A stretch of 63,272 nucleotides of DNA, filler included, from Folioceros fuciformis (taxonomy: Eukaryota), in the NCBI GenBank assembly GCA_049999805.1. It is 10 parts of 10 records of this genome, joined end to end, with 100 filler letters (N's around TTAATTAATTAA, not from the genome) between each part and the next. Parts side by side here need not be neighbours in the genome. Positions count along the whole stretch, not along the records: positions 27,999 to 40,318 come from JBNGIO010005066.1; 9 more parts are not named here. One strand, 5' to 3'. Positions 5,197 to 51,205 of this stretch are shown in pieces (the stretch's first letter is position 1; every line of letters begins with the position of its first letter). Below the pieces are notes generated by a model. That model did not search any database. It was not told the DNA's origin and saw nothing but the letters and a program-made list of their open reading frames with translations. The translations under genes and the position numbers were made by a program.

Positions 5197-5207
5197 TGGT
5201 ATCAGAG
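5197..5207 (+). promoter_or_regulatory. Orphan PBS-like site of another LTR element
   Basis: TGGTATCAGAG; no recognisable gag follows. Confidence 0.5.
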
Positions 5208-6296: not shown

Positions 6297-6396
6297 NNNN
6301 NNNNNNNNNNNNNNNNNNNNNNNNNNNNNNNNNNNNNNNNTTAATTAATTAANNNNNNNNNNNNNNNNNNNNNNNNNNNNNNNNNNNNNNNNNNNN
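6297..6396. other. Artificial contig linker N44-TTAATTAATTAA-N44 (also 10042-10141, 17822-17921, 27899-27998, 40319-40418, 43786-43885, 56632-56731, 59727-59826, 62164-62263)
   Basis: Identical 12-mer with stops in all six frames centred in each 100-nt N block. Confidence 0.97.
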
Positions 6397-9266
6397 GGTG
6401 CCTGCTTCAAACCATAAAGGCTTTTCTTTAACCTGCACACTAGATTCTCTGTGCCCTTCTCAATGAAACCCTCTGGTTGCTTCATGTATACCTCTTCCTG
6501 GAGATCACCATGCAAAAATGTTGACTCCACATCCATCTGGACAAGTTCTATGTCGAGCCTCGCAACCAGACCAAGAACACATCGCAAGGTCGTCATTTTG
6601 ACAACCGGTGAGAAAATTTCATCAAAGTCAATACCTTGCTGTTGCTTAAAACCCTTCGCAACCAATCGTGCCTTGTACTTGGGTTTGCCTTAATGGGGTA
6701 TGTCCTTCATCTTATACACCCATTTGCATGGCAACGCCTTCTTACCCTTAGGCAACCGAACCAACTCCCAAGTTTGGTTCTTGTGGAGTGAATCCATCTG
6801 CGACTGCATCGCTTCCTCCCACTTGTCCTTGTCAATCACTGACATGGCCTCTTGGTAACAAGAGGGCTCCCCACAATCCGTCAGCATGATATAATCAAGA
6901 GATGCAACGTACCTGCCAGAAGGACGTGAGATCCTTCCTGACCTACGAAGCTATGGCGCCTCAACCGGAGCTGGTTGCACTCTCTCCTCTTGTACAAGTG
7001 GAGGAACTTGTTCCTTTTTATCACGACGTTCAACCTGTGCAGGACGGTCAAATCCATCTTCTTGAATTACCACCCGTCGCACCTCCACAGTTGGAGTAGG
7101 CTTCTTGTGCATCTTGGTCTCATTGAAGAACACGTCATTACTGCGAACCATTCTCTTGGCCTCTGGATCCCACAGACGGTATCCCATCTCACCAGATTCA
7201 CCATAGCCAAGAAAAATACATTTCTTGGACTTGGGTGCCAACTTGTTCCGAAACTCCTTAAGAACATGGTAGTATGCCTCGCAGCCAAACACTCGCAGAT
7301 GCTTGTATGACGGCTTCTTTCCAGACCACATCTCCTCCGGAACCTGCTCATCCACAGCTATATTAGGAGATCTGTTAATAAGATGCACCGTAGTAGCCAT
7401 TGCTTCGGCCCAAAATCCGTTAGGCAATCCAGAGTTTGACAATAAACTACGCATCCGCTCCTGGATGGTCCTGTTCATCCGTTCAGCCACACCATTTTGG
7501 GGAGGAGTATACGGCGCAGTCAATTCTCTCTTGATTCCCTTAGAATCACAGAATGACTGGAAAGCCTTTGAGACATACTCTCCCCCATTTTCTGTCCTTA
7601 GACACTTCAGTCGGAGGCCAGATTGAGTCTCCACAAGGGTGACGAATTTCTGAAAAACTGTCAGAACATCATCCTTTTTCCTCAAAGGATAAACCCACAC
7701 CTTGCATGAAAAGTCATCAATGAAAGTGACAAAATAAGATGCACCACCTAACGATACAGTGGGCATAGGTCCACAAACGTCACTGTGAACCAACTCAAGA
7801 GGTTTACTTTTGTGTTTACCTCTTGCTCCATGTGGTGACTTCGTCTGTTTCCCATACAAACAGTGCTCACACACGGAGAAATCGGAGAAGTCAAAAGCAG
7901 GGACGTAACCAAAACGAGATAAGATCTTCATTCCTTTTTGAGACATATGTCCTAACCGACTATGCCACAAGGAAACACTTGGCTGCTCCGTTACACAAAT
8001 CACATGATCCTTAACAGTGGTTACCTGAAGTGAGTACAAAGTGCCACACTTCTTTCCACGAGCTAACACAAGAGAACCTTTGGAGATCTTCCAAGAATTA
8101 TCTCCAAACCAACAGTGGTAGCCAACGTCATCCAACTAGTTGCCTTGCACTAATCATGCTTTTAGCCAACTTCGGAACATGCCTAACATCCTTCAGTATG
8201 AATGAAGATCCATTGTCGAACTTCAGCTGCACATCACCAACGCCTGCAATCTTGCATGTGTAGTTATTTCCAAGCCATACACATCCTTTCCTAGTAGCAT
8301 CATACGTGCTAAACCACTCCTTATGTGGAGTAACTGGAAAGATGCTCCAGAGTCAATTATCCAATTAGAGAATAAGTGACTCTCCACAGCTGTCAGTTGT
8401 GTAGAATCGAAGGAAGAAGAGATAAGAACATCTCCATCGTCAACATAATTCACCTCGTTAGGCTTGGTACTCGAACTTACCTTGGTGTCGGTTTGCTTCT
8501 TCTCCTTTCCTTCGTCCTTCTTGAACTTCTTGCAGTCCTTCCAGATGTGACCCTTCTTGTGACAATGGTAACACTCAACATTGTTACAACTACGAGATTT
8601 ACTACGGGAAGAACTTCGCTCCTTGTACTTCCCCTTTGAAGTGGACCTTCCTCTCACCATGAGGGCATTGGAACCTTTCGAAGGTTCCATATTCTTCCTG
8701 TTCACCTCCTCTGTTAACAGACTACCTTCTACATTTACAACGGTAAGACCACTGGCAGAAGCCGAATTACTCAGAGCTGTACGAAAGGTGTCCCAGCTCT
8801 CTGGTAATGTGACCAATAGAAACATAGCTCTCACGAAATCTGGAAACGAGATACCTTGAGATGAGAGCTGGCTGAAAATTGTATTGAACTCGTTTAGATG
8901 ATCGGACATCCTCGTCTCTTCCTTCATCTTCAAGTCCACCAGTTGTTTCAACCAGTACACCTGAGAAGCTGCACTTTGCTTCTCGTACAGGTCACACAAC
9001 TTCTGTCATAGCTCGTAGCTAGTGGTCTTGTCTTTCACGTTGAAGTAGACCGACTTCGACAATGTTAGCATGATGGTAGACCTAGCAAGCTCATCTAGAT
9101 CTTGCCACTCATCCTGAGTCATGCTAACAGGTTTCACTCCTAGCAACTTTATCGGCTTGATTTGCTTCTTCTGCACTAGAACATTGTACACTTGTTCTTT
9201 CCAGAACGGGAAGTTAATACCATCTAACTTCTCGATATTGAACATGACGTTTTCGGAGGACGTCAT
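6397..9266 (-). mobile_element. Ty1/copia gag-PR-INT-RT(5' part), lightly disrupted; same family as 3021-4424
   Basis: Gag start MTSSENVMFNIEKLDG, knuckle CYHCHKKGHIWKDC, protease WIIDSGAS, integrase LWHSRLGH/LVHSDVCGP/QNGVAER, RT VAKGFKQQQGIDFDEIFSPVVKMTT; stop at 9006 and frameshifts. Confidence 0.96.
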
Positions 9267-9593: not shown

Positions 9594-10041
9594 TGTAGGG
9601 TTATTAAAGCCCAATGTGCTTAGACTAATGTGATTAATCTAATTAGACTAATGTGATTAGTCTAATTAGACTATTGTGATTAGTCTAATTAGACTATTGT
9701 GATTAGTCTAATTAGACTATTTTGATTAGTCTAATCAAACTAATGTGATTAGTCTAATTAAACTTGTATGATAAGTTTCATTAGACTAATGTAATTAGTC
9801 TAAGATCAGTGTTTAATTAAGTATCATTAGCTTAAGCTAATTTTTAGGAAGCTTCCTACATAGCTTCCTGTGAGCTTCTTGTGAAGCTTCCTTAGGAGCT
9901 TTTCTAGAGGGCATAAATACCCTCTTGAGCTCCCTTTGCAATAGAGATGTGAGAGACACTGTGAGACCTCTCTTTCTCCTCTCCTCTCCTCCTCCCTTCT
10001 TCTCTCCTCTCCTTCACCATGCTCCTCTAATGATCCTTTCA
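9594..10041 (+). repeat. Copia 3' LTR
   Basis: TGTAGGG...CCTTTCA, preceded by PPT; homologous to solo LTR 29201-29491. Confidence 0.9.
9620..9803. repeat. Tandem array of 8 x 23-bp palindromic unit TTAGACTAAT-GTG-ATTAGTCTAA
   Basis: Units counted directly from 9620 at 23-nt period; no spacers. Confidence 0.95.
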
Positions 10042-10868
10042 NNNNNNNNNNNNNNNNNNNNNNNNNNNNNNNNNNNNNNNNNNNNTTAATTAATTAANNN
10101 NNNNNNNNNNNNNNNNNNNNNNNNNNNNNNNNNNNNNNNNNGATGTAGATAAGGAAGGGCTTAAGGTTATTTCTTTTCTTTATCTTTTAGGAAAGACTTT
10201 TACAAGAAAAAAGAGCACCTCAAGATCCAACATAGAAATGGGCTACGGCAAAAGTTGGGCAACAACTTTCATGTAAACATCACATAAACCACCATATTAA
10301 AATAATCCAAAATCATTCTAGATCAACCATGATCTATACTCGGTGTTTTGGTTTCAAAACCCGGGCACCCAGTGTTTTTTGTGGACCTATTAGTCATGAA
10401 TGTCTTCATGATTCTTATCTTATTCATGCAAAACGCTAGTTACGAGATTTACAAAAAAATTAACGTGCCATCATCCTAGGATAGGCTATCTTGCAAGACA
10501 GGTTAAGGAAGGGAGGCGAAGGAGAAGGAAAGGATGCCACCAGCAAACGAAGGAGAGCTACCTGCAGTGTCGTCTGAAAGAAAGAAAGAGAAAGAAAGAA
10601 AGACGCAGAATGGGGGCCTCAGAATTTCAGGGCTTCCATAGGATGGCACCATGCCTCGTGAGATACGTTCTTCGGTTCGCTTGGTCCAAGATATCAATCA
10701 GAAGCATATCAAGCTACTAGTACCTCTCGCTTAAGCAAATGGATATGATTCGTGACCTCTGCCAAAACAGAAGGAGGAGAACAAAACTGAATACCTTACA
10801 CCATGCTGGGCATGAAATTCAACGTCCAGCACCACGTCCAAAAAAGTGTCTGACACTAAATCTGCCTA

Positions 10869-17065: not shown

Positions 17066-17921
17066 GAGCTGATACAACGAACCAAGGAAGAAAGGCACAG
17101 GCGCAGCTCTGGAGCCGCCGCAGCTGCAGCTGCAGGAGCAAGGGCGGGTGCAGGAGAAGGAGCAGGCGTAGGAGCAGGTGCAGGTGCAGGTGCTTCAAAC
17201 ACAAGATCTCGCAGCCTGTAGAGCCTTTTCATCCGACAGGGTGCATGCTGCTCCCATCTCCGCAGCTCCGGTCCCCACAAATCCGGTACCAGAATGGGAA
17301 GCCGGGCCAGCTAGAGGCCGAGGCCTCTTCAGGATCCCAAATGTACAAATAAGATGCAGAAAGCGGGAAAGTCACATGGCAATATCACCGAAATCGTTGG
17401 CGAAGCCTCCTGTGGTTTCACCTTGCCAGGATCACACAACGTGTCTCGGGCTTCGGGATATTTGGAGGCCTAGTAAAATACCGCGGACTGAGGCCGGGCA
17501 GATGCTGTAAGGGCGTCTCCGGTATCGGACATCGCGCGGCCAGATTCTAAACTCACTGGCTGCTTATCCCAAGTCTGATCTGGCACGTCTGATCTTCAAG
17601 TTGAGGAGCATCATCCCACGCTCTCTTCAAGTTGCAGAGCAGGCACCGTGCGACGTAACGGTGTTGCCAGGCAGACTTCACGCGTGTTGGGTCTGGTTAG
17701 AACGTGACAGCCGGAGGGTGTGCCCTGGGGAATGTTGTGCACGGGCTTTGGTCAGACCCCCCCCCCCTGTCTGCCGGGATGCCTTTTCCTCCTTGGCTGC
17801 TGGAACATAACACCTCCAGGCNNNNNNNNNNNNNNNNNNNNNNNNNNNNNNNNNNNNNNNNNNNNTTAATTAATTAANNNNNNNNNNNNNNNNNNNNNNN
17901 NNNNNNNNNNNNNNNNNNNNN

Positions 17922-27898: not shown

Positions 27899-27998
27899 NN
27901 NNNNNNNNNNNNNNNNNNNNNNNNNNNNNNNNNNNNNNNNNNTTAATTAATTAANNNNNNNNNNNNNNNNNNNNNNNNNNNNNNNNNNNNNNNNNNNN

Positions 27999-30900
27999 GG
28001 GGACACACTTTGCTGGGAGGGGGCCCATTGGACTAGCAGCCACTATCCCTGGGCAATCCGAGGGATCTGACCCACATATACATGCGAGCAGGGAACAAAT
28101 AGGAGGGAAACGAAACGATAGAGTGCAACGGGATGCTGGAACTGAAGTAGATGGAATTAGCCAAAAGAAACCAAAGGCATGAAGGGTGAGGGGGGGCCCT
28201 GGATCTTTAGAGGCCATAAGGACAGTACGTGTAACAACGGATGAGGAGCGCTTAGAGGAAGCTGAACAAGAAGAGGATCTACCTACTTGCCTACGAGATT
28301 GCGTGTATGAGAAGAAGGTAGTCCCATAAACTACGTGGGTGAAGTTGGAGAACCTCAGGATCGTAGCGTACCTCACACCGGATGCGCAAATAAGAAAAGT
28401 GGATGAAGCTTGGACAAACAATCTCACAAGGGTGATAGCGAAAGAGCGCATCGAAGAGGGAGTGCTACCTCTATTATGCATGATAGACCCGACTGAGAGT
28501 GCGACGTTGAAGGAACTGGATCTGGTGAAATCTCAGGCGCATCAGTATGTTATGGGTGTTCTCAGGGGGAATCACATATTTGCGGCTATGAAGCACTTAG
28601 TGGATACCTCACCAAGGAAAAAAATGGTTTCAATATGTTGAAGCCCATGTGTACTATGGACCTACACTGAAGGAGATGCGAGTGCTTGCGATGGACCACA
28701 ATATTATGTCAGACAAAAGGAGGAAAATGTCGTTCATCGAGAAGGTTTGGTATCTCAGAGACGAGCTTATTATAGCCAAAAGAGATGGTGTGCATATGAC
28801 CATGGCATGGAAGTTCAGCTTGTACAAGGTCTTGGGACTAATCGAAGATGACCAGGGTCAGGAAGATGATGTTTACAAGGTGGATAATCGGACACACATA
28901 TTGTGCATAGCCAAGCAGGAAGGGAAGGTCTAAGAAAACATAGACAAGATATTCAGCAAATGGGAAGCTTGTGAATTGCCGAAACAACGGAAACATACAG
29001 CAATAGGCATGAACAAGAAAGGAAAAGGCAAGAGCAAAGCATCTAATGATGTGAAAAGGGTTGATGCTGGCTATGTGAAGTCAAAGGATATGCTCGCAAA
29101 GCCATGGAAGTCGTTCCAAGGGATACCACCAGGGGAGTGTGGCTAGCAAATCCTCATATCGACAACAGAGAAAGTTCTTGTTGGTTTGCTGGACCTGAAA
29201 TGTAGGGTTATTAAAGCCCAATGTGCTTAGACTAATGTGCTTAGTCTAATATTAGTGTCTAGTTAAGTATCATTTCTTTTAGATTAGCTTAAGCTAATTT
29301 GTAGGAAGCTTCTTGCACAGCTTCCTGTGCTCTTCTTGTGAAGCTTCCTTGGGAGCTCTTCTAGAGGGGTATAAATACCCCTTTGAGCTCCCTTGCAATA
29401 TTGAGACATAGAGCGTGAGACCTCTCTTTCTCCTCTCCTTCTTGCTTCCTCCTCTCCTCCTTCACCATGTGGCTCCCCTAGCGATCCTTCATGAAAGGCA
29501 TGGACGATGACATAAGCCTAAGGAAGAAGTTCCATATTATCAAGGTGGCGATGGCGAAGCAACTTGGTTGTTCTTCATTTGATGAGGTGCGAAACAAGTA
29601 TCCGCAACACTCAACAAATGCCATGCTCGCGAAGTTTCAAACAGTGTTCACATGGAAGGTAAGACATCCTTTATATTTCATGGAAAACTATCCGTTTGCC
29701 TTATTGTCTTGTTCATCTGCCAAGGAGGGCGCCGGCCAGCTGGCGCCCTTGAGTGCAAAGCGTGATTGAGAGTGGTCCTCGTGGGGACATGTCACTCAAG
29801 TCTAACAAATTTTTTATGTTGAATATGTTTCCAGCAATTAAAGGATGTGGAGAACCTTACGAAGCTCCCTCAAGAGTTTCAAAACTACATTTTTGAAGTC
29901 AACAATTGGAAGGTCTTAGATAACAAGCAAAGAACCATCGCCGAACAAAGGACTTGCATGACGGCTTATTCAGTTTCAACGTTCCTTCGACAGATATGCA
30001 AGTGTAGTATATGGTTGAGGCATGGATTGTACAAGACATGAGGGGCTTTATGCGTAGACGCAATTATGGGTTGTTGCTTATGGATGTTCCTCGTGGGTTT
30101 GACATTGGTCCCATAGACGATCGATTGGATGGAAGCATTCTAGAAAATGTATTCGCCAACTTTGCGGAGAAGACAACTAACGAAGATTTCCAGTGGTGGT
30201 CATACATGGTGTAGAAGATGCACACACGGTTAGGGAGGACATGAAAAAGTGGTGCACCCGAGGTGAGCTCATTTCATTTGTTTGGGATAAAATGAATCTG
30301 TCCAAGGACCGCGGAGGCTTTGAAGCTGTGGAGTACATTACTATTGGATGGCCTTTGAAGGATGGGAGCAGCAAACAGTGCACGTCAATGATGCCATGGC
30401 ATAAGGGTGCTATCTTCAACAATAGAAGATCTATTATTGCACATGATACAATTGTGAAGAAACATGTGTACCTTTCCCATGACAAATGGGTTGTGTGCCC
30501 CATATCAGAGACCAATGGGGTTAATGGACAAGCTAATTTGCAGCTTCAACAAAGAGGGTGAGTGGGTCATGAATGCATGTTCTGGAAGCGGGACAACACT
30601 GTTGGCATCATTGCTAGCTAGAAGAAATTGCGTGGCCATTGAAGGGGACAAATGATGTGCAGCATACACTGCCCAGCAAGTGCATGGTTATGAAGTGCTC
30701 CCTGATGCAGTGGAGGAGCTAATGTTCGACCCGCTTCAAAGAGGACCATCACAATACTGGGCAAAGGAGGTATGCATCAGCAAGAAGGACTACTCTTGAG
30801 CACATGTTGTCTCTTTGACATCGAAGAGGAGGAGCTGCAAGAAGAGCCCGACAGTGGTGCCAGGACAGCAAACTTTGGACAGGATGTGGGAAGGGCCAAC

Positions 30901-31120
30901 AGTAGACAACGAGGAAGATGGAGATGCGCAAAGGGAGGACAAGGCACTGGAGGAAGTGGACAACTTTGATCTTGAAGATGAAGTGCGATCGTAGAATGTA
31001 ACCACAGTGTTTGACTCGAAGGCAACAGAAGATCATCCTGTGGACTAGAGTAGCCGTAGAGTGTATGCTTTTGTGGGTAGATGTTGAATTCTGTGCCCAG
31101 ACACTGTACACTGACAGACA
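27999..31120 (+). pseudogene. ParB-like domain fused to beta-class N6A/N4C-type DNA methyltransferase, copy A; intron 29659-29834; interrupted by solo LTR
   Basis: ParB-like QIRKVD...VL(R)GNHIFAAMKHL...DHN...MSFIEK; MTase motifs in beta order: YGLLLMDVPRG (IV), FVWDK, EYITIG, PYQRPMGLMDKLI (X), GEWVMNACSGSGTTLLA (I), RNCVAIEGD (II); stops and frameshifts. Confidence 0.8.
29201..29491 (+). mobile_element. Copia solo LTR with 5-bp target-site duplication TGAAA
   Basis: TG...CA ends; TGAAA at 29196-29200 and 29492-29496; homologous to LTR 9594-10041. Confidence 0.95.
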
Positions 31121-31929
31121 ATATCGAAGGTGATGAGTAAAAAGTTTTATACCCACCCTTCATTTTCATAGTAACTTGAGTTGGAGGGAGAGGGCGAGGG
31201 CGCCATCCAGCCGGCGCCTTCGGCTTGTAACTCATCTAACCTTCACCGTGTAATCCATGTTTCAAACTTGTCGCAAGCGAGGAAGAGGGTGTGTGATAAA
31301 CAAGCACATTTGATTTTGTGTGTTTAAAGAAGGGTGTCTTTATTGTCAAGAAGGTCTACCCTCCTTCTAAGAGGGTCACAACATTCACCCCCTTGCAAGT
31401 TTGTGTTGTTGAATGTCCATTCATACTCTTTGTTCTTAGAAACCCTTGTTTTCTGCCCGTATGTGATTAATTTCAAACTGTGGGTTTCAAGGATATTAAA
31501 CCTATAGGCTTTCGTGACGCACACAAGTATGCACCCACCACGAGACCTAGTGTGCCCAAGTGTGCGCCATGCACCTAAGACCATCATAACAGGCTATAGA
31601 ATCAAGGCAATTCCAAGACACGCTAGTCAGGCACTCCCTTCTTCCTCTTCAACATTGAGTGTTGAAGAGATGTTATAACGATGTTCAAGATGTTGAAGCA
31701 ACCTTAAACGCCTCCAAAAACGGCTGATCAACTGGCTAAGGATTTGAATCCTAAGGTTTCATTATCGTTTTACTCTCCCCACATTTAGGAGCCTTTAAAT
31801 CAATCTATTGGTATCTAGAAGTGCGATTTGGAAGCTTAGTGGCATTTTCAAGTCCTTGCTAAGAGCTAGTTATCGCACAAAAAATTGCATTCGGAGCAAA
31901 CCATTTCACACAAGTTCTTGCTCTGAGCG

Positions 31930-32130
31930 GGCCCGTGCTCACGAATGTGCACCATGACCTAGTTGCTATGAATTTATGCATGTCATAACTCAGTTGGCGC
32001 ACACAAGTGTGTGCCATGACCTCGCAAGCACACACTTGTGCACGCCATGACCACGCTAGTACGCACAAGTGTGCACCATGACCAAGCTGGCACGCACAAG
32101 TGCACTCCATAAAATAGCTAGCACACATGT
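31930..32130. repeat. Degenerate ~30-bp tandem repeats with GCACACAAGTGTGC-like palindromic core
   Basis: Cores at about 31999, 32028, 32061, 32091, mostly followed by CCATGACC; outliers at 31519-31570 and 32643. Confidence 0.75.
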
Positions 32131-32903
32131 TCAGCGCATAATGGTAAAAAAAAACATTAAAAATAGCAAAAAAAATCCAAAAAAAACCCAATTTTTAGTC
32201 ACTGGTGCGCACTTGGGCGCGTCATGGCTTCAAAGTTTTATAGTTTTCCTTTTTTTGGATTTTTTGTATAAAAAATCCGTTTTTATCGTTTTTAACCCCT
32301 TTTTGCACAGTTTTGTTTTGCAGTGAGACTTGACTCGTACCCATCTTTCTTTTGATGATCTAAGCTTTAAGTAAAGTAGTGAGTGAGGACTTAAAGCGTG
32401 CTTTGCATCCTTGGATGTTTAAATGCCTTTTACAACAAATGTGTTTAGAAACATTCTCCAACGCGACTTTGCCAATAGACAAACCTGACGAACCCAGCAG
32501 ACAAACCTAAAGAGCCAATTCTATTGGCAACCCAACAAGAGACAACCCTACATTATTATCCCTAGGCCTGAAAGGCCAGAATCTACACGATTCGAAAAAT
32601 AAGACCTTTCGCTAGATAGGCTACATGCCTGAAAGTAGGCAGGCGCACACTTGTGCACGCCTTGATACTGTAGTTTACTAGAAAAACAACTGATTTGGAA
32701 ACAAGTTTCTTGTGTGCCTTATATCAATGTCTGCTTTCAACATAAAATAGAAGTGTGTAAATTCGCATAGTAATAGCCGCTGGCCTTCTCAAACCCTCGA
32801 CTTGCAATAGATGGCATTTTTGGAGGGTGGTGCGATGTCATATGACTAAAGCAAAAGGCAAAAGAAGGGTTTGAGGACAGACCCGATTTATTTTAGGCAT
32901 TGT

Positions 32904-33545
32904 TCTTTCCCATGACAAATGAGTAGTTTGCCCATATCAAAGACCATTGGGGTTAATGGACACACTGATTTATAACTTCAACAGAGAGCGTGAGTGGGTT
33001 GTTGATGTGTGTACCGGCAGCGGGACTACACTACTAGTGTCATTGCTTGTTGGGAGAAACTATGTAGCCATCGAAGGAGACAAGCGATGCGCAACATACA
33101 TTCCTTAGTGAGTCCATGGGTATGAAGTGCTCCCAGATGTTGAGGAGGAGCTAACATTTGACCTGCTCCGGAGAGGGCCATCCCAGTTTTGGGCGAAGGA
33201 GGTTTGTATCAAGGAGAATGATTGCTCTTGAGCACAAGTAGTTTCTTTGACCTCAAAGAGGAGGAGCTGCAAGATGAGTGAGGCATTGGAGGCGAGACAA
33301 CAACCTTGGAGAGGGTATGGAAGGGATTGCAAAGGACAATGAGGACCTTGGAGACTCACGAATGGAGGACAAAGGAGCTAGAGGAATTGGACAACCTTGA
33401 TGTTGAAGATGAAGTGCGATTGCAGAACATCGTTGTTGTGTTTGACTTCGAGGCTACACAAGATCCTCCTGTGGACTAGTGTAGATGTAGAGTGTATGCT
33501 TCTTTGGTTAGATGTTATGTTTTGTGAGCGTGAAATGTACACCCA
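32904..33545 (+). pseudogene. Methyltransferase family copy B (3' fragment)
   Basis: CPYQRPLGLMDTLI...EWVVDVCTGSGTTLL...RNYVAIEGDK; colinear at DNA level with 30472-31100. Confidence 0.85.
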
Positions 33546-33889
33546 AAGACATTCTCCAATGGACTTAATAAACATTCATAAAGAACGTTGTTTGAAATAA
33601 TTCGGGTCTGTCCGTTGACCCTTCTTTCCTTTTTTTTCTGCACATGGTTTCCCCTCTTCCCACCCTCCTTGATCTCTCAGTTTTGTTGTTTCCGAGTTGG
33701 GCTCGCTAGACACATAGTACATCATGGGTTTAAAAGTAGACATTTTTTGAAGCTAAGATTACAGACATGTCAAGCTGATTGTATTACCGTCAAACATGAG
33801 CATGTATTACAATGATCATAGCCATCCATGGCACGCACATGGGCGTGCCAAAGCTCTTTCACATTTGCATTGCTAACATAGGCCACAAT

Positions 33890-34920
33890 CTACCCTTCAT
33901 GGGGTGGAGAGTCTTGTTGCTCCGTCATGGGGACAATTATGTCATCTCTCATTGGCGCATAGCTCACTAACAAACAACGGTCTGGGTGGTCTTCTTCCAC
34001 AAACACGAATGATGGGTTGGACGTGAAAGTCTCTAGCTGCTCAGGGTCCCAGGTCTTGTCATCAGAGTGTCGTGGCGCTGGCTTTCCCAAATCCTCTACA
34101 AGTGCATTATCATATTTCCTTCCCTTCCTTTCATTCTCTTCTTTGCATGCCCTTGCGTTTGACTGAGTTCTTGGAGGTCCATTGGTGAAGTCTTTCCTTC
34201 AACCATTTGCATTATGTGCGCTCTCGGTTTCACCCACCTTCCACTGGAAAGCTCTCGAGCAAAAAAAAGTGAATGCACTCATGTGTGAGGCTTCGTCGTC
34301 AATTCTTCCTCATCGAATGTAAATACTTCATGCCCCATGATTCTCTGCTCGATGAAGATGGTATGTCGTTGGTCTTGGTCAATGACAATACCATTCCACC
34401 TTTCCATAAATACAGCAAGCACACCACTTCCGCTCCCAGCGCATCCATCTATAATCCACTCTCCTCGATCGCTAAATAGCTCACATAAGAGAACTATCAA
34501 CCCCAAGGGCTTCTAATATGGATTTACAACTCGGCCGTCATTCGACAAGTTGACCAATTTTTTGATGATAGCGTTGTGCTTGATGATCCAAGGCATCGCT
34601 CCAATCTCCTTTGCTGCACTGTTGCTCAGTGCACTGCTCTTTTTGATATCTTCATTCAACGGATGAACCCCAAATTCTACTGCCATGTACGTGCAAATTT
34701 CGTACAGACCCTCATATGCTACGACATAGTCTTTTTCCTAGACCATAGTTTGAACGCCTCCCTTTGCGCACCACTTCCGTAAGTCGTCTCTCACATCCTG
34801 CATCTGATTTGGTCCATGCATGCACACAACTTTGAATTTTGGCACTCAGTGAATTTGAAAAATCCTTATGTGGAACATAGAATTTCACGCCAATGTTCCA
34901 ATTTTGGTACAATATGTACA
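33890..34920 (-). pseudogene. Methyltransferase family copy C, 3' part (divergent)
   Basis: FKVVCMHG...VRDDLRKWC...VVNPY*KPLGL...GEWIIDGCAGSGSG...IVIDQD aligns by eye with copy A. Confidence 0.8.
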
Positions 34921-34922
34921 AA

Positions 34923-37401
34923 TGAGGCTAGTATAGGGAAGGTTGGTTCCTTCCTATTTGGTTTTGTNNNNNNNNNNNNNNNNNNNNNNNNNNNNNNNNN
35001 NNNNNNNNNNNNNNNNNNNNNNNNNNNNNNNNNNNNNNNNNNNNNNNNNNNNNNNNNNNNNNNNNNNAGGGAAGGTTGGTTCCTTCCTATTTGGTTTTGT
35101 TTCTATTTTCTATTGTTATTTTTTAGTGGCTATATATGTGAGTGGGGTTTTCACGCATAGTAAGGAGAAGCATTTGTCCGAGGGACATGAGTCTGATGGG
35201 TCTGTCCGGGAGACAGAATTGACGAGGATCCGTCTGAGGGATAGAAGTGGGATGGATCTGTTAGGGGGGCTGAGGTGGTCTGGTACCAAACCATCAGGTT
35301 TGGCAAGAGGTCCGAGCAGGGGACCTGCTAAACCAAGCTACATGCAAGCACTCCAAGTCACTAGATTGCATCTAGGCACTCCAAGTAACCAAGTTGCATG
35401 CAAGCACTCTAAGTTCCCATGAGACATGCAACCACTCTAAGTCCTCAGGTGCTTGGGAGCTTAGGGAAAGCAGCCATTTGTGAGCAAACGGGTGGGCAGC
35501 AAAAGATCATGAGAGGAAGTGGCAATGCTGCCAGAGTGAAAAGGCAATGAGGTTGCCACAGCGTGGCAACCTCGTCCAGCGTGGCAACCCCTTGTGGCTC
35601 TCGTCCTCCTGTCCTTTTCTTTTTACCCTTCTTAGGGTGCAGGTGATTGAGCAGTTGCAAGAATAGGAGCAAAGGGTTGAGAGCTCGCAGGAGGAAGAGG
35701 AGACTGCTGTAGGGGCATTTGATCCTAAGCCAGAAGATTTGGGGGAGAGAGAAGAGGAAGCTCGGACCGGCAAATGTGGAATGCACATCCGACAGATAGG
35801 AGATCTTGGGGACACTTGACCCCAGGACAGAAGCTAACGTGGATCTATCACTTGTGTTGCCTACAAGACAGGAGGACTCTCCTTCTCCTATGCCTTTGGA
35901 GAGCAGCCCAGCAACTGCACCCTAATCATCAACAAGAGACTAGCTGATGAGGTGACAACACCAAAGGACAAGGAGGATAATTGCAGCAAGCAAAAGATCA
36001 TAAGGTTCCCTCCCAAGGACATAGCTGGCGGAGGAGTGTGAGGAGTGGGATTGGGCCCCACTGTTTAGACTTAGTTTATGTTGGCTCGTGGTGGATTGGG
36101 CCTAATTGGTAGGCTCATTAAGACTTCTGACACCAGGTCATTTTCTAGGCAAGCCTAGATTAGTGAGCCAAGAGGTTCATTAATTTAGTTGACTTTTCAT
36201 AGTATTGACCTAAAGAGAGAGAGAGAGCGTGAAGAAGGAGGGGACCTCCTATAAGGCTAGGAGAGTCCCATGAGCTCTCGCTTCATGAGCTCTAGATGTT
36301 TCTTGTTTCAACTGGCTGATGTGGTTGAGACCTCATCTCCCTTTCCAATCGGATGTTGCTAAGTTTTAGCTGTTGGATGTGGATGAGGTTAGGGATTACT
36401 GGCTGATGGTGCAAGTGTCCATGGTTGTTGTTCTTATTGTTCCCGCATGTTGGTCTTGCTAGTGTGTTGTCGGCCAAGGAGACTTGGTGCCTGGTAGAAG
36501 GTAAGGGTAGGTTTAATCAATTTGTGGGGTAGCGTAGGAGAGTTCTAACCCATGGAGGGAAGAACAAGTAGAGGAGTAGGTGTGGAAGAATAGAGGAGTA
36601 GAGGTGAAGGTCCTTGTAGTGTTTAGAGTTACAAGGCACCGAAAGTGCTCATGGCTTGGCAAGGAGCATGAGGTTGTGTTTCCTCAAATCCGCCCTAATT
36701 GGTATGTGTTTCTGACGTGGTGCTGGCAGGATCTGAAGGAGGGGGGTTGCAACCTGGCTGTACCTTCCTTTTGCAGGTTCTGACTTGTGGTTTCCAGCAC
36801 ATAGAGTGAGAGGACTATAGGCAATAACAGCTACAGCAGTTGTGAGTGCGAAGATCTGTCCACGAGTCGGCAGTGGCAACCTAAACCGTTGGCAGGGTAG
36901 GAGTGATATTCCTAACCTGTCTGCAGTTGGCAGGTATGTCGGAAGTTGAGTAGTACCTCTGACCGGAGGTAGCAAGGTCAGAAGTGATTTGGATGGAAGT
37001 TGGTTGTGAGACGTGAGAAGGGTGAAGTAAAAGGTTGTGGGAAATGAGAAGGGTGAAATAAAAAGTTGTGAGACGTGAGAAGGGTGAAGTAAAAGGTTGT
37101 GAGACGTGAGAAGGGTGAAGTTGGAGGTTGTGTGGTCAGGTCAGGGGTGACAGACCTAATCTGTATGCAACTAGATGAGTCCTGATTAGGGGTTGCGAGG
37201 TCAAGAGTAGAGGGTCAGCAGTTGGGAGGACATGATTTGTTGGGTTGGATGTAAGAGTTGTGAAGTTGTGGAGTCCAGAGAAGTCATCTCATATACTACA
37301 GATTGGGAACACTAGCCACTCTTTGGTGGGATCGAAACCCATTCTATACTAACGATAGTGGGATAAGTGTGGCCACTACAGGACAGAGCTCATGGAGTCC
37401 C
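34923..37401. mobile_element. Unclassified repeat-like insertion separating the two parts of methyltransferase copy C
   Basis: Lies between two colinear halves of copy C; internal tandem repeats; no recognisable domain; plain N gaps near both ends. Confidence 0.45.
37002..37131. repeat. 4 x 31-bp tandem repeat GGTTGTGAGACGTGAGAAGGGTGAAGTAAAA
   Basis: Read directly. Confidence 0.9.
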
Positions 37402-37501
37402 NNNNNNNNNNNNNNNNNNNNNNNNNNNNNNNNNNNNNNNNNNNNNNNNNNNNNNNNNNNNNNNNNNNNNNNNNNNNNNNNNNNNNNNNNNNNNNNNNNN
37501 N

Positions 37502-37791
37502 TTGTCCCATGGTTCTGCGTAGTTTCCTCTTGGCATATCCAATATGAGCAACTTATACTCTCGATTACTCAAGTATGCATCCATTTCTCTGAGATCACCG
37601 CTTCTCACCTGATATTTCACTTTCTGTTTATTGCTAGGGACTTGGAAGGTTGAGAGTTTTGCATCATTGTCCTCATCCGCTTATTTTCGTTGCAAATCCT
37701 CTACTCACTTCCAATTCTAAGCGGCATTGATGTGCTCTTTAAAAGAATCCAGAATGACTTTCTCCTTGTATTCCTTTGCCTAGTAGAGTGT
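37502..37791 (-). pseudogene. Methyltransferase family copy C, motif IV exon fragment
   Basis: After a TGCAG acceptor: SFKEHINAA*NWK*VEDLQRK...GDLREMDAYLSNREYKLLILDMPRG, homologous to copy A exon 2. Confidence 0.75.
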
Positions 37792-38149
37792 CTGCATAAA
37801 GTACCGACTTTCGCGTGATGGATTAGTGTGAAAGTTAGAGCATGGGCATGAGAGCGTGAGAACGCAAGGGGCAAGTGAGCAAAGACAAAAGCAGTTATAA
37901 TTCATTTCACAAGAAAGTGTAAATATATAATTAGGTATTTAATAAAGTATATTTCTGATTATAAAACTAACCTAAACTAACATAATTTCCTTTACTCCCT
38001 CTTAGTTGAAATAATCAAGATAAGGAAAATATGAAAAATAGGCTAATGTAAACCATAACACTAAAACCAAAACAAACAACTAGCTCCCTCTTAAGCTCCA
38101 AAAGAGGGTAAGGCCTTAGTGTTGTTGTTGTTGAGCAACACACGACTAG

Positions 38150-40318
38150 CACAAAACGTTGTGGCTTCATCCACTGCGCTGATCAACATACCACATTAAT
38201 GTGCAGTGCCAATCTTGGCCANNNNNNNNNNNNNNNNNNNNNNNNNNNNNNNNNNNNNNNNNNNNNNNNNNNNNNNNNNNNNNNNNNNNNNNNNNNNNNN
38301 NNNNNNNNNNNNNNNNNNNNNAGCCTTGGTAAGCAAATCTGCAATGTTGTCACTTGTTGGAATATAACGAACTTCCAACTCGCCTGTATCAGCAGCTTGT
38401 CTTATAAAATGATGAGTAATTTCTATATGCTTCGACCTCGCATGGAAAATTGGGTTCTTCGAGAGTGCCATAGCAGATTGGTTTATCACACCATAATACT
38501 GTAGCACCTGATGGTAGTTGCTGTATGCCTCTCAAGAAAGAACGTATCCAAATTACTTCTCTTGCTGCTTGTAATAAAGCTCCATATTCGGCCTCTGTAG
38601 ATGATAAGCAAATAGTAGCCAACTTCTTGCTTGACCAAGAATCTTGCACCAGTTGCACGTGAAAGTATGTCTTTGAAGGTTGGGCTGCCGAGAGGTTGAA
38701 GATCCTCCTCGTGTTGAGCCCCCACCTCCTCTGCCACGATTGCCTCCACATCCTTTTGAACCAAACAAAACTCTGCTGCCTTGCTACATAGTAGGCTTTG
38801 ACTTGTGAAGGCTCCTCCGGCGTTCTTCAGCAATCAAAGCTCCAAATACCTGCTCCAATGTTACATCGGCACCAGGTCCAACTGCTTGAAGAGTAGCATT
38901 CTGAGAACTGATAAACTGAAAATAACTATCAGGCAGAGATGCTAAAAAGGAAACAGCTGCTTGAAACTCAGTGAAAGTTGTCCCACAATATGCAAGGGTC
39001 GCACGAGCTATGCGAAACTTATTGATATAAGACTCAACAGTCTCATTATCCTTCATACAAATATTGAAAAAATCCCGATGCGCAAAAACAAGGGAAATAG
39101 AACTCTTATCTCTATAGATGAGTTGGAAGTTGTTCCAAACTGCAGCTGAGGTGTCAGCGTCCATGGTATGCGGCATCATGTTCCTGTCAAGGGATGCCAA
39201 CAGGATTGACCGGGCTCTCCTGTCCTTCCTTTGCCATGCAAGAATATCAGCAGCATTTGCATTGTTGGGCTGTGCTGCTGGTTTTGGTTATGTTCCGTCC
39301 ACAACGGACATGAGCTCATGCTCCTCCAAAATCTGGGTCAGCCTCATGGCCCATATGTGGTAATCATTACCATTGAAGCGATCCTTGTCCTTGAACTCAA
39401 TCTTCAAGGAACCTGGGGTGATTGCCATAGCTTGCGCAAGGGTGTTGACAGGAGGCACTGGTTGTTGAAATGTGCTGGCTCCTAAATGTGCAGCTTGTGC
39501 AGTGGAAATTCCAACTCCACCAGCAGGATAGCCTGCCGTGCTTGCAAGGGTGCTTGCAAAACCAGTAGGGTTGCCTGCTGCAGGAGAGGGAACACCAGAT
39601 GGGTTGCCCCAAAAACTTCTCAAAAGCTCAAAAGGAGACGCCTCTTGCTGCTCATCGGTGCCAGTTGTGGAATCGACAACAGGGGAAGCGGGTTCCTCCT
39701 GCAAATCCAATCTGCCAAGTCCACATCTTCGCCTTCATTAAATTTGCCAGACGCTGATGATGGCGAACCTGGCTGCATGTCCAATTTTCAAACATTAAGA
39801 ACAGGGCACACGTGGGCGTCCCGGTGAAAACAGCCTAGCCAAATGCACATGCTTCTCCTCTTCAGTTGGAGTAGACAGAAAAAATAATTGTTGAATTCCA
39901 GTTAGAAGAATAGAGAGAAAATCTTGTAAATCATAGATCTGGTGAGATGCTTCCCTCAAATCAGCTTCAAGTTGTCGTTGTAGAAAGTTACGAGGAAATG
40001 AAGAAGGTGTATGCTGAGTAGGGCCTCGATTGGAAATACGTCTCACAAAAGGTTGTGGCTGGCTGCTTGCAAAATGTCCGGATTCTAGCTTCCGGCAAGA
40101 TGAACAAACAAAAAACCTTGCTGGTTTAGGTGACGGTTGAGGGCAAACACTTCTCCACTGTGTGTGAGAAGCTGCCTTGCACCTCGGCATCTTCACCAGT
40201 GTTGCAGCATCCTCATTGTTCTTGAGAGAATTTCAAGAGAAGACGAAATCACAAGTTGGCACCTCAGCGCTTCACTGTTCCTCTGATGAAGCCCGCTGCC
40301 CGTGCATCAGCTGCGCGC
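38150..40318 (-). mobile_element. Internally deleted Ty1/copia (gag followed almost directly by RNase H)
   Basis: Gag LKIEFKDKDRFNGNDYHIW, FLASLPDSY; then SWSSKKL...SSTEAEY and HARSKHIEITHHFIR; PR, INT and RT absent. Confidence 0.9.
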
Positions 40319-40418
40319 NNNNNNNNNNNNNNNNNNNNNNNNNNNNNNNNNNNNNNNNNNNNTTAATTAATTAANNNNNNNNNNNNNNNNNNNNNNNNNN
40401 NNNNNNNNNNNNNNNNNN

Positions 40419-46610: not shown

Positions 46611-47446
46611 TTATGTGGCGTCCTTCTTCAACATTTGAATCGCATCTCCTACGGCTGGAAATCCTTTCTTCAACTCATTCCACTGATCACGCGTGAGACT
46701 GATGCCTGCAAGCACAGTTTTGCAGGTCATTAGTACCACACAACCAAGCGCCACCGAGCAGATAATGGGTGATGGAACTTTTGCCAAGTAATCCGCCACC
46801 TTTCCCAGGTAAGATCTGGCCGTCCTTCTCGTAGAACTCTCGAACAGACACTAATTTCATCCCCTTCCAGTCGGAGACAGTGAGATTGCGCTTCGACGTC
46901 AGCTGCCAACGGTAAGACGGCGCAAGTAAGTGACCTATCGCACACAACAAGCCCCCGCACCCATTGCCCATAATTCAACAGTTCTACGCCGCAGAGACAG
47001 AAGCCAAATACCTGGCAGATGAGCAATGCTCCATCGTCCATCCTAGTTCTCTCCTGCATTTCACCCTTCCCGCCCTTCCTGTCTTCTTCTTCTTCTTCTT
47101 CGGTAGGATTACGCTTGGCCCTCTTTCCCAGTGGCTGGGCGTCCGCCTCCTCGTCATTCTCACTTTCCTCTTCCCGGGCTTCCGCAGGCGCGTGCTGCGC
47201 TTCACTCTCCCCTTCCGAGTCCCCTCCAGCATCCTCAGACACCAGGAACTCCTCAATCAGCTCTTGCACCCGTTGCCTGTACCGCTTCTGAGAAAGGTCA
47301 ATTCCCGTCTCCTCTGAAGCCTGCTTCCGCACCTTTGCCTCCGTCATGACATCCATGTCAGCCGATTTCAAGATGCTGCGCACAACAGCCGCGATTCTCT
47401 CGTCCTCGTCCTTGCCCATGGTTCTCTCCACCTCGTCCTTGCGCAT
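46611..47446 (-). CDS. KELP: Transcriptional coactivator KELP (DEK-C plus PC4 domain); exons 47446(or 47419)-47012, 46902-46800, 46705-46611
   Basis: VRSILKSADMDVMTEAKVRKQAS; LTSKRNLTVSDWKG.KLVSVREFYEKDG..LPGKGISLT.DQW. Confidence 0.93.
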
Positions 47447-47919
47447 GTTGGTGCCTCGGCTTGTGCCCAAAGTCTTTCGCACCAGAAATTGCCTACAATC
47501 TACTCTTGCCTGACTGCCAGCAACCTATCGAGCAGACCTATGTCGAAATTCCTCCAGAGCAGAGTTAGGCCGCAATTCAATCCCGCAAGACCACTCAGCT
47601 TCCCTCTCGAACCTGAGACGCCGGCTTTCCTAAACCCCAGAGCCCTTAAAGCAGACGACGGGCAGAGTTATATATGTCTAGTCCAAATTATAAACCCAGA
47701 GCCCATTCAACTTCATAGAATTAGGCCCTTTTATCATCCCTGAATGATCTCGGTCTGTTTACGGCAAAAGTATCAAGCAGTAATGGCACAAGTAAAATAA
47801 GATGAAAGTTAAAAATAAAAGAGATGAAAAATTAAATCTAGAGCATAAGCAAGTATGCTTCTTGCTACCTTTAGAAACAAGATGTGTGTTCCACGCAATG
47901 AATAAGCCAATGCTAAAAT

Positions 47920-48248: not shown

Positions 48249-50325
48249 AGGGGCCTCATTCCATTTTTATTTGGATTCAGGGATAGATGGGATTTCCCTA
48301 TCTTGTCGTTCAATAAATTTTATTCATCCAATTTCCATGGTCTGTTAATCTTACAATATGAGCACCTAACAGAAAATTCTCCACCTTAAACAATAAACCC
48401 AACTCTAGCGCTTTCCCTCACATTTCGATTAATTGAGTAAAGGGCCAAGCCCAACCTACATAATGCTCCTCTACCATCCACTCTTCGGGACTCTCCACAT
48501 TCACGTTCAACGTTGTTGCTGTAGCTCATACACCTTTGTTTTAATAAGCTGCTACGTCCTTAGTTCTACAGCGTGCTATCCCAAGTAAGACAAAATGCAT
48601 AAACTAACGTATATGTTTTGAAAAGAGTCAACTTATCCATCTTTGGGGAATGGTGATTTTGGGCCTGTTTTCTACCTCTTCTTGGTAGCTTGGAGGGGCA
48701 TATCTCCTCTAGCAAATATCTTCCCTTAAACGCATTAACACTTTCTGTAATCCACCATTGTATGAGAAGGAAGGGGTCAACTAATGTGGCATCAACCTCT
48801 TGAACCTGGGCAACATGGCCTTCCAGCCCTGCTCCCTCCATTATCGTAGTTCTAGTAGGCCTATAGGGTCCGATGTACATATGTCTTGGCTCGGTAGTCC
48901 TATCTACTACATTCACTTCTTCCAACACTTGATATGCCTCCCCCTCCACAATGGCGGATGTCGTTGCCTCCATGCTATACCACACTGCACCTACGATGCA
49001 CTCAATTTCCTATCTTCTCCACTTAGAATTCTATGTGCGATAACTTTTGGGGACAACCAAAACAAGCACCACCACTTCTTGTCTTAGGTGCTTAAATATT
49101 TTTCCATAGGTTCTTCGAGCAACTTCCTAATTTGTGCCAAACTATGTAAAGGATTGGGATCCTATTCCTTTCCATGAATCTGCAAGCCAAGTAGCGGCGC
49201 ACCAACAATGGGAGTTGCGGGAATCTTGCGTAACAAATTCCAGGCCCTCCTATGGCTCTTAATAGCTAGATGTGAGGATAGTAATCATCACGCCTCCACA
49301 TTGCTTCTTTGGGTTATTTTGAACTAGTGTAACTATGATTCTTTAAGTTGCAAACTGTTGCATCATTCATCCCTCGCTTTCCTGTCCCCTTTGACCATAC
49401 GTAGGCTTGATAGTTAGCCACCTCTATCACCAATCTGCACTTTCTAATTGGGCATGTACACCTGCGTGATTAGCTTCAACATGGTCTCCAATAATAGGAT
49501 CTTCTTGCGTTTCAGTGTCCTTGAAAAACATGAGAAGGTGGAAGAGAATCAGGCCGTGGAATCTCCAATAATAGGACCTTCTTGTAAGGAGGCTCTAAAG
49601 GCTTGTACAAGAAGGCGTCCTACCCTTGTTGTGCATGATCCATCAATAGGGAGTGCCCAACATCCGGACATTAATTTTGACCATGAGAAACTGAAAAAAC
49701 ATAAGTATACCACATGAGTATTACTCAGCAACCATAGTTTTTATGCATTTCAACAACTTTATGTAGAGGACCTGGAAAAGGAAATGAGGTGTTTGTAATG
49801 TGAAGGCTAATTTTCGCAAAAAAGTGTCTTTCATTGAAAGGTTTTGACTCTTTCAATAAATTCACAATGACAAAGCCAATAAATTCACAATATTGCAAGC
49901 AATAAATTCACAATATTGCAAGCAAGGACTCCAATAACAATGACATGGAAGTATGTATGATTTATGCAAGATGCTAGGAGTCGTTGGGATGCAAATGATA
50001 GAGATGACCTATTGATGAAAGTCATCCGGGACGCAAATGACATGGACGACAAACAGAAGTTATCAGTGTGTCTAGTCAACCAAAAACTTGTCCATGTACG
50101 GGCAAGTGTGCCCCAACATATTTGGCAAAGGTGGTGAGGAACGTGGGAGAAATGGAGGGCGTCCCATCGTTGTGAAGTAAATACATGAAGAAAAGAAAAC
50201 CCTACCTACGTAGGCATAGCAATGGATCAGATACTTCTTTCGAGGAAAATGACGCGCAGGCACCGACCAGCGCCTTAACGAGTCTCTGCCACAACTGGTG
50301 GCTCAAAAAAAGTGAGTGGCATAAT

Positions 50326-51205
50326 TTATCGCTTGCCACCACCGCCACCAACCTTAGGACCCTTGGGTATGGCTGCCCTCGCGGTAGCAGACTTTCCAGA
50401 GCCCTTCTGGACCTTGGCGACAGCCTCAGCCTTCTTGGCCTTTTTCTCGTCTTTAGTTTTCTTAATGCGCTCCTTGATCTCTCTGTCCAGTGTGCACCTC
50501 GGACCTCAGACATCTGAGAGCACTGTGCAGAGCGAAGACGGTACACGAATTGACGACGAGACAATACCTGAGCGCAGCTTCCCGAGCAGCCGCTCGTACT
50601 TCGGTCTTCTCCGCCCGCTTCTTCTGAATAACTTCCAGCGACGCACCAACAATAGACCTGGAATAGGGCTTACTGGTTGTCCGCCTCTTCTTTTTCACGG
50701 CCTCTGCATGAATATCCTGACGGGGCACACGGATCCCACCATCGTTAGGGTGTCGTCCGCGAGCCAAGAACATAGCCTAACCCTAAATTTCTGGAACCGA
50801 CGGAAACAGGAGCACCCGAGCACGAAGTGCATCAACGGCTCACCTTCTTGTGCTGTTTCCTGAACAGCTGTGTCCATGTCAGCTTGGATGGTTTAAGCCT
50901 GTTATGAAAGTACCTCTTGCACTTAGAATTCAAGAACAGAAACACCTGGCATAGATGAAACACGCCGCAGGGTGAGACAAGATGAGCATCCCAAACACAG
51001 CACTTAATCTCAGCAGCCTTGTGTCCCACCTGCGAGTCACTGCGGATGAACCTGATACCACGACCCGGGTATATCTTAGCGCCGCTGAACCGGCAGACCT
51101 CTGTCCTGCAGGGCACAAACGGAACAAACTTGCATTTCAGAGGGAAACGAGACACAGCGTGAGACGATCAGATCCGGCGTTACGCCAAGCTTACTTGAGC
51201 ACCAT
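50326..51205 (-). CDS. RPL24: 60S ribosomal protein L24 (eL24), 5 exons
   Basis: [20 protein letters not shown]...|[13 protein letters not shown]...|DIHAEAVKK...|EIKERIKK...GGGGGKR*. Confidence 0.97.

Follow-up and report, generated by a model that had tools for sequence, protein, structure and literature searches.

What a gene that joins a ParB-like module to a DNA amino-methyltransferase is doing in repeat DNA of the plant Folioceros fuciformis, and whether it is still alive there, is the question raised by a stretch of 63,272 nucleotides of this genome (GenBank assembly GCA_049999805.1), here called the window and meaning the whole stretch that was analysed. Three copies of the gene lie on one contig, JBNGIO010005066.1, which occupies positions 27999-40318 and contains three 100-N gaps. 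The reading favoured here, to which we give a probability of roughly 0.7, is that these copies are dead relics of a family of fusion genes that in relatives is an accessory gene of a DNA transposon.

Copy 1 (28183-31135, + strand) is a pseudogene of a two-part eukaryotic gene family. Stop-to-stop open reading frames (ORFs) and three-frame reads resolve it into a single collinear gene whose 5′ end is cut off where the contig begins (27999). A family hidden Markov model (HMM), built without rows from the window and searched against 1551 six-frame pieces of it, matched six pieces of this copy in collinear order (E 0.021 to 1.4e-22): the N-terminal pieces 28330-28638 (E 2.7e-6), 28601-28930 (E 4e-14) and 28934-29143 (E 3.5e-6), and the methyltransferase pieces 30008-30211 (E 1.9e-4), 30181-30558 (E 0.021) and 30458-30652 (E 1.4e-22). 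The first two fall in the N-terminal module (28183-28930) and the third in the first part of a helical and basic linker (28934-29200), which aligns to the linkers of relatives from Ginkgo and Riccia; residues 350-529 of the Ginkgo protein P0151 match 28628-29197 in tblastn with E 1.3e-9 (P numbers denote protein records from the searches). The second part of the linker is an exon at 29497-29658 that ends in ...FQTVFTWK and to which residues 402-454 of P0152 align (E 0.02). The methyltransferase domain with its acidic tail, delimited by Pfam, the family HMM, the reading frames and alignment, follows at 29835-30994 and closes with the terminal stop at 30992-94. Behind it lies a 3′ untranslated tail (30995-31135) that blastn and MAFFT found to be common to copies 1 and 2, the homology ending at about 31135 and 33565. 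Among nine window fragments compared with Pfam, one passed the gathering score, the match being N6_N4_Mtase (PF01555) at 30458-30652 (29.1 vs 26.7 bits, E 1.2e-6). A word-index protein search with a 126-amino-acid (aa) window fragment scored none of 48 candidates.

The strings and features listed in the initial annotation of this DNA were all recovered in place on the + strand. They comprise R..D (28393-28404), GNH..AA (from 28567, reading RGNHIFAA in the window) and N...MSFIEK (28700-28744) in the N-terminal module, and, in the methyltransferase, DVPRG of motif IV (30083-30097), W.K (30283-30291), EYI (30331-30339), PYQRP (30500-14) and SGSGTT (30581-98), the last followed by RRNCVAIEGD. The gene carrying them can no longer be read through: copy 1 has six in-frame stops (28327-28329, 28931-33, 29144-46, 30005, 30653 and 30797) and four frame changes (in an A7 run at 28618-28624 and at about 29950, 30190 and 30495), besides an inserted long terminal repeat (LTR). 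Together with the truncation of the other copies, these lesions bear out the view that the copies of the window are dead.

The inserted sequence is a solo LTR of 291 bp with TG..CA ends (29201-29491, +), lying inside the linker and flanked by the target-site duplication (TSD) TGAAA at 29196-29200 and 29492-29496. Excising it together with one TGAAA preserves the reading frame and brings 29497-29658 in frame with 29147-29200. It is 79-96% identical to a block at 9594-10038 beside a Copia element on another contig. DNA contigs from two runs of one sample were also aligned to the window; they are not independent of the assembly, which may have been built from these runs. One plus two of these contigs join 29195 straight to 29492 and so represent the empty site, the LTR bins reach a word depth of 10^4 and above, and other LTR copies run on past 29491 into sequence resembling a tRNA primer-binding site (PBS). 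The TG..CA ends, the 5-bp duplication, the homology to LTRs elsewhere and the empty site expected of a solo LTR are therefore all present. Variants about 90% identical to parts of the copy 1 gene occur among the same contigs, which indicates that the genome has further copies.

Between the linker and the methyltransferase lies a predicted intron of spliceosomal type (29659-29834, +; 176 nt, GT..AG), as had been annotated. Splicing it restores the frame, joining ...FQTVFTWK to QLKDVENLTKLPQEF..., and its position is that of intron 2 in three subfamilies found in metagenomes, represented by the loci L010, L017 and L075 (L numbers denote metagenome loci). The corresponding junction joins ...FIAFKDW to KPCRSKK... 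in L010 and ...FYLAFKK to MRKNDNGVPDSF... in L017, with L075 split at the same position. The remaining three introns of the metagenome relatives are absent from copy 1. Removing LTR and intron, the check proposed for this locus, thus keeps the frame in the first case and restores it in the second, and the conserved intron upholds the proposal that the gene is eukaryotised.

Copies 2 and 3 are less complete. Of the gene, copy 2 (32905-33565, +) retains only the 3′ third, ...VVCPYQRP onwards, together with the tail; it is 75.5% identical to copy 1 (HMM E 1.6e-20). It is enclosed by the arms of a 48-nt inverted repeat (32861-32908 and 33580-33627; 79% complementary), whose core motif was observed twice against 0.03 expected; no target duplication was found at these repeats (32861-33627), which may form a small terminal inverted repeat (TIR) or foldback element carrying a gene fragment. 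Copy 3, on the - strand, is a divergent paralogue with 30-39% aa identity to copy 1. The C-terminal two thirds of its methyltransferase lie at 34279-34839 (HMM E 1.5e-17), and the N-terminal part, with DMPRG as motif IV, at 37510-37749, where residues 26-107 of P0018 match in tblastn (E 4e-5) and an ORF spans 37390-37680. An in-frame stop (34513-15) interrupts its YQKP motif, and the frame changes at about 34737. The two halves are about 2.6 kb apart, separated by assembly gaps and tandem repeat; repeats of 31 nt x 4 (36900-37160) and of 28 nt x 3 (35331-35442) were noted in this interval.

The enzyme half of the gene was assigned from the outset to the beta class of amino-methyltransferases, and the region 29835-30994 is indeed recognisable as the relic of a beta-class N6_N4 enzyme. 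In addition to the Pfam score of 29.1 bits, DVPRG (motif IV) lies N-terminal to PYQRP (X), SGSGTT (I) and motif II in the permuted order, in alignment with phage-like enzymes, and relatives of the gene score 65.7-68.9 bits with the same Pfam family. The canonical motif IV is (D/N/S)-P-P-(Y/F/W). The window departs from it, copy 1 having DVPRG and copy 3 DMPRG. Riccia has D-V-P-Y-G as motif IV and the sea cucumber Holothuria D-M-P-Q-D, D-[LVM]-P-R-G being common to the window and several other contigs, and among 51 metagenome matches DIPYG was found 35 times, DIPHG 14 times and DPPFG twice. Because D-[LI]-P-Y-G is likewise motif IV of the closest phage-like enzymes, the change of the second proline is ancestral to the subfamily; the loss of the tyrosine is derived. 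Variants with arginine, histidine or glutamine may be altered or inactive, and with arginine in the place of the aromatic residue (D-x-P-R-G) even the live ancestors of the window subfamily may have had altered catalysis or none.

As to the product, motif IV opens with an aspartate in adenine enzymes and with a serine in N4-cytosine enzymes. Since the family motif begins with D, N6-methyladenine (6mA) would be the likelier product where the tyrosine is kept. Two phage-like near relatives, P0026 and P0085, are named adenine-specific by JGI; P0085 matched 714 phage records, many of them annotated as adenine methylases and of about its own length. The solved enzymes closest by sequence, M.RsrI, MboIIA, CcrM and DpnA, are adenine methyltransferases. 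With named near relatives and closest solved enzymes of this kind, the analogy with N4-methylcytosine (4mC) enzymes drawn in the initial annotation is doubtful. In a quick maximum-likelihood tree of 61 rows, the 31 family rows stand on one long branch (support of 99 in the Shimodaira-Hasegawa-like approximate likelihood-ratio test, SH-aLRT), and the window copies group with D-L-P-R-G rows with an SH-aLRT value of 89, which is not decisive.

Relatives of the gene were reached by an exhaustive HMMER search with a 65-aa fragment spanning motifs X-I, which returned 182 proteins at E <=0.001, the best of them 38% identical. In 33 of the 150 matches listed, x-x-Y-Q-K-[PSA] replaces the bacterial H-P-T-Q-K-P, and 32 of these 33 look like family members. 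The named members come from Ginkgo biloba (five models, P0012 and P0151-P0154), Riccia sorocarpa (11 of the 13 rows of one hit list and P0004, on several chromosome-size contigs), Chara braunii (P0046 and P0093) and the sea cucumber Holothuria leucospilota (P0168); no Marchantia protein was among the protein search results. Every examined model from Ginkgo and Riccia is partial, each in a different way. A profile of the plant N-terminal module and linker matched the Holothuria protein in hhalign with a probability of 99 (E 8e-18, 273 columns), which makes this part homologous in plants and sea cucumber and shows the family to span kingdoms. Two of these proteins have peculiarities of their own: motif IV of P0168 is degenerate (DMPQD), and P0093, with 1825 aa, apparently has two methyltransferase-like parts.

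Whole genes were recovered from metagenome contigs, where a scan matched 176 stretches, of which 86 were confirmed and 80 kept as loci. Many of these hold the complete fusion gene in five exons, exon 1 encoding the N-terminal module and linker and exons 3-5 the methyltransferase; the exon-1 motif is present in 30 loci, 21 of which have an uninterrupted exon 1 of at least 470 aa. The predicted proteins of the family run from an N-terminal module of ParB/Srx pattern through a helical basic linker and a beta-class amino-methyltransferase to an acidic tail. The two modules are collinear within one gene in the window, Ginkgo, Riccia, Chara, Holothuria and the metagenome genes, so that intact relatives do not divide them between separate genes. 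Within subfamilies the metagenome paralogues share 63-93% aa identity, with nonsynonymous divergence (dN) of 0.04-0.25 and saturated synonymous divergence (dS); the comparison of L010 with L040 gave dN 0.043, dS 1.45 and omega 0.03. These intact relatives are under strong purifying selection. The metagenome contigs can be taken as eukaryotic DNA because the neighbours of the gene are plant-like (L020 1253-2074, -; L003 3922-4494, -; L065 6272-6802; L021 5582-5884). These neighbours comprise a short-chain dehydrogenase (E 1e-55), an ORF with a terminal CCHC zinc knuckle (zf-CCHC E 0.009, below the Pfam cut-off) and, by eye only, pieces of Copia-type integrase and reverse transcriptase.

In these relatives the fusion gene is carried by a DNA transposon. 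Locus L025 is a complete element of 7.6 kb, bounded by 37-nt TIRs (180-216 and 7737-7773) that are 97% complementary and enclose an 897-aa DUF7869 ORF on the - strand (Pfam E 1.7e-52) and, on the + strand, the fusion gene. From its position and from acidic motifs seen by eye, the DUF7869 ORF is a putative transposase; the language-model neighbours of DUF7869 belong to Streptophyta, Oomycota and Echinodermata. A sharp 3′ boundary, about 0.5 kb past the stop codon, is common to six paralogues; this terminus recurs in 11 loci, and 2 carry it inverted. In L008 a nested copy of the element sits within a further family gene, in its intron 4; the corresponding site is empty in L009 and L010, whose flanks are otherwise identical, a finding that points to recent mobility. 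Upstream of the fusion gene, 9 of the 80 loci contain a 23-bp palindrome in up to 12 tandem copies per locus, and related but distinct palindromes occur in the same place in other subfamilies, with 3 in L024, 1 in L021 and at least 7, recurring about every 41 bp, in L010. The nested element of L008, which has 12 copies of the 23-bp palindrome (4752-5668) and no DUF7869 gene, has the look of a non-autonomous derivative in which the array has expanded.

The suggestion that the gene is transposon-borne is thus substantiated for the relatives, through L025 with its TIRs and DUF7869 gene, and not around the window copies, where no element ends were found; in the F. fuciformis genome, carriage by a transposon would follow by analogy with the relatives. 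Elsewhere in the window, 48566-49009 (-) and 49447-49548 (-) weakly resemble, in collinear order, the DUF7869 ORF of L025 in its C-terminal part (E 0.002 and 0.05 in phmmer), for which Pfam gave no confirmation. These two stretches may be a decayed element of the L025 kind.

Several results weigh against one part or another of the reading of the window copies as relics of a transposon accessory gene. As regards the carrier, a search of PDB sequences with the L025 DUF7869 ORF gave no match to any solved transposase, no target-site duplication was found at L025, and a DUF7869 gene stands beside the fusion gene in only three loci, namely L025, its near-identical counterpart L027 and L004, at whose end the DUF7869 gene has a different orientation. 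A search around the window copies for TIRs, palindromes or shared termini found none; the 5′ flank of copy 1 is cut off where the contig begins. As regards the enzyme, the missing second proline and the loss of the aromatic residue in the window subfamily make methyltransferase activity uncertain, and unnamed rows of the tree were labelled prokaryote or eukaryote by guess, four of those guessed to be prokaryotic falling inside the family. Part of this would fit an ordinary multi-copy host gene family, perhaps long domesticated, whose pseudogenes were scattered in the window by duplication or capture and are not transposon copies. Copies 1 and 3 lack element ends, copy 2 could be a bare gene fragment within an unrelated inverted repeat, the paralogues of the relatives are very old, with saturated dS, yet conserved, and the annotations of Ginkgo and Riccia treat members as genes. 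Such an origin is nevertheless unlikely given that the relatives lie in a TIR-bounded unit with a sharp terminus common to 11 loci and show an insertion polymorphism in one case, that the Ginkgo and Riccia gene models are fragmentary in differing ways, and that the window copies reside in unplaced repeat contigs, with further variants of about 90% identity in DNA contigs of the same sample. Far less probable still is a derivation from an integrated large DNA virus or a prokaryotic contaminant. Phages and algal viruses often encode beta-class methyltransferases, as the 714 phage records matched by P0085 illustrate, but a scan of IMG/VR returned only 2 generic phage methylases among 45 pattern matches, and the conserved spliceosomal-type intron, the plant-type LTR insertion with its empty site in the DNA runs, the plant-type genes and Copia elements adjoining the relatives and the long family branch, separate from the phage-like enzymes, all speak against it.

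The unfavourable results also extend to the N-terminal module. No match to ParB_N (PF02195) was obtained in Pfam at E up to 1, either with the nine window fragments or with family members, and none to ParB in PHROGs, NCBIfam or PADLOC. An hmmsearch of the module against PDB sequences was without match, tblastn of the module found nothing in phages or plasmids, and hhalign against P1 ParB, a single distant template, returned a probability of 1. A ParB_N search through two virus records gave no loci for a ParB alignment, and a pattern scan of 185,579 species genomes gave no prokaryotic relative of the module (a methylase scan gave 2 weak methylase matches). Results of this kind would be expected if the module were an unrelated, eukaryote-specific DNA- or chromatin-binding domain with a superficial likeness to phage proteins, the methyltransferase alone being phage-derived; in keeping with this, none of 10 longer proteins from the HMMER matches shows a ParB domain in Pfam, and the phage proteins matched by P0085 are annotated as methylases and are similar to it in length. 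We regard this as a possible but rather doubtful view, and a ParB fold as probable. By eye, three conserved blocks follow the ParB box pattern. ParB Box II is a G-x-x-R phosphate-binding motif. In this region the family has GG-[SNC]-H-[SN]...A and the window RGNHIFAA, with arginines 4-5 residues further on, and the histidine of the GG-x-H motif resembles Srx/DndB-type motifs. The same GG-x-H-S stretch gave DUF6551 matches in 6 of 20 family members, the best (E 0.015) being below the cut-off, and the language-model neighbours of the module, which are leads only, include a ParB_N cluster (0.93) and a DUF6551 cluster (0.90). The palindrome arrays beside the gene in relatives are parS-like. DUF6551 proteins are listed among proteins of the ParB-CTPase fold (bioRxiv 10.1101/2025.10.10.680097), and similar cargo proteins of algal transposons have been published as ParB-like (PMC12477816). 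Of the ParB/Srx-like core described in the initial annotation, the strings stand, at 28393-28744, and a profile match to ParB does not.

If the window copies are relics of a transposon accessory gene, a mechanism can be proposed for their live relatives. The fusion gene would serve a TIR transposon of the cut-and-paste type, mobilised by the large DUF7869 gene on the opposite strand as its presumed transposase, with palindrome arrays specific to each subfamily upstream of the fusion gene. Binding to these palindromes would fall to the N-terminal module or to some other region of the protein, and the methyltransferase would then mark the DNA of the element itself or DNA nearby, most likely with N6-methyladenine. 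In the three window copies this function would have been lost through stops, frame changes, LTR insertion and truncation.

The kind of gene is already known, since ParB-like plus methyltransferase accessory genes of transposons have been described in brown, green and red algae (PMC12477816). In the element Sola1-1_Ec32 of Ectocarpus, such a gene and the transposase occupy opposite strands (PMC12477816), and the likeness to L025 comprises the N-terminal ParB-like module, the amino-methyltransferase and the position opposite the transposase, putative in L025, within a TIR transposon; the authors likewise propose that the accessory protein binds and modifies its own element (PMC12477816). The two were likened by description only and differ in that the Ectocarpus gene encodes a protein of 1104 aa in an element of 21.5 kb, against 7.6 kb for L025, and in that its host is a brown alga, whereas the fusion family was found in land plants, a charophyte and an echinoderm. 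Methylase and ParB-like modules are likewise transposon cargo in the red-algal Plavaka genes PAG2 (PF01555 and SET) and PAG3 (ParB-like and 2OG oxygenase), and tandem inverted-repeat arrays adjoin the ParB-like gene there, as palindrome arrays do here (bioRxiv 10.1101/2025.02.11.637652). In these red algae, by contrast, each of the two modules is joined to other partner domains in a gene of its own, carried by EnSpm/Plavaka, Zisupton or Mutator elements (bioRxiv 10.1101/2025.02.11.637652).

ParB-N6_N4 methyltransferase fusions of phages and prophages have the same order of parts (bioRxiv 10.1101/2025.10.10.680097), and stand-alone phage adenine methylases share the D[LI]PYG signature and the permuted order IV...X-I-II. 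The eukaryotic family differs from both in its own long branch, its introns, a linker of about 200 aa and an acidic tail, as well as in an N-terminal module for which the scan of species genomes detected no prokaryotic relative. The 4mC enzymes N4CMT of bdelloid rotifers (PMC8885841) and DN4MT1 of Marchantia (bioRxiv 10.1101/2021.02.12.428880) are PF01555-type enzymes of prokaryotic origin in eukaryotes as well. Compared by description, they are single host genes, N4CMT with a chromodomain and neither with a ParB-like module. Motif IV of the fusion family begins with D, the residue of adenine enzymes.

The rotifer PF01555 enzyme was stated to have no eukaryotic homologues (PMC8885841), and another paper lists ParB-linked methylases in chlorophytes and few DNA amino-methyltransferases in land plants (PMC4738411). 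A literature search, beyond whose reach were the supplements of the algal papers, found no report of the fusion family in land plants or animals. The supposition that the gene is undescribed in its lineage thus holds, within that search, as regards reports from land plants, and not as regards the kind of gene, which is known from algae.

The surroundings of the three copies are of limited bearing. The window is an artificial chain of unplaced contigs, each junction being made of N44, TTAATTAATTAA and N44 (6297-6396, 10042-10141, 17822-17921, 27899-27998, 40319-40418 and further sites), and neighbourhood across these linkers therefore carries no meaning. As position 27999 is a contig edge, the Copia genes just upstream of it belong to a different contig and are not neighbours of copy 1. 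A Copia element on the - strand was noted at 6345-9005, with gag (9005-8223), integrase (8135-6951) and the start of the reverse transcriptase (6689-6345). The LTR-like block at 9594-10038 adjoins this element, belongs to the same family as the solo LTR of copy 1 and has tandem repeats of about 20 nt inside. Just past the upstream end of copy 3, at 38196-39734 (-), lie a Copia-type gag and the end of a pol, interrupted by a 100-N gap. Likely host genes were recognised on another contig, namely one for a DEK_C-domain protein (46733-47524, -; Pfam E 5e-12) and one for ribosomal protein L24e (50835-51167, -; E 3e-22), the latter apparently split by introns.

The window itself contributes dead copies only, and the meaning of the finding lies with the family, since a PF01555 fusion is now seen in a gymnosperm, a liverwort, a charophyte, an echinoderm and F. 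fuciformis. A more far-reaching picture can be drawn, in which a still-mobile DUF7869/TIR lineage, extending from Chara to Ginkgo and to an echinoderm, encodes an adenine methyltransferase with a ParB-like loader attached, a protein that docks on the palindromes of its own element and writes 6mA (or 4mC) on transposon DNA, sperm-specific enzymes like DN4MT1 being possibly its domesticated offshoots; taken as a whole it is speculative and improbable. Were this picture true, the family would represent a self-marking system of transposon DNA in land plants. The intact and selected copies that are borne by transposons and accompanied by palindrome arrays are the candidates in which self-marking with 6mA or 4mC by plant transposons may be tested.

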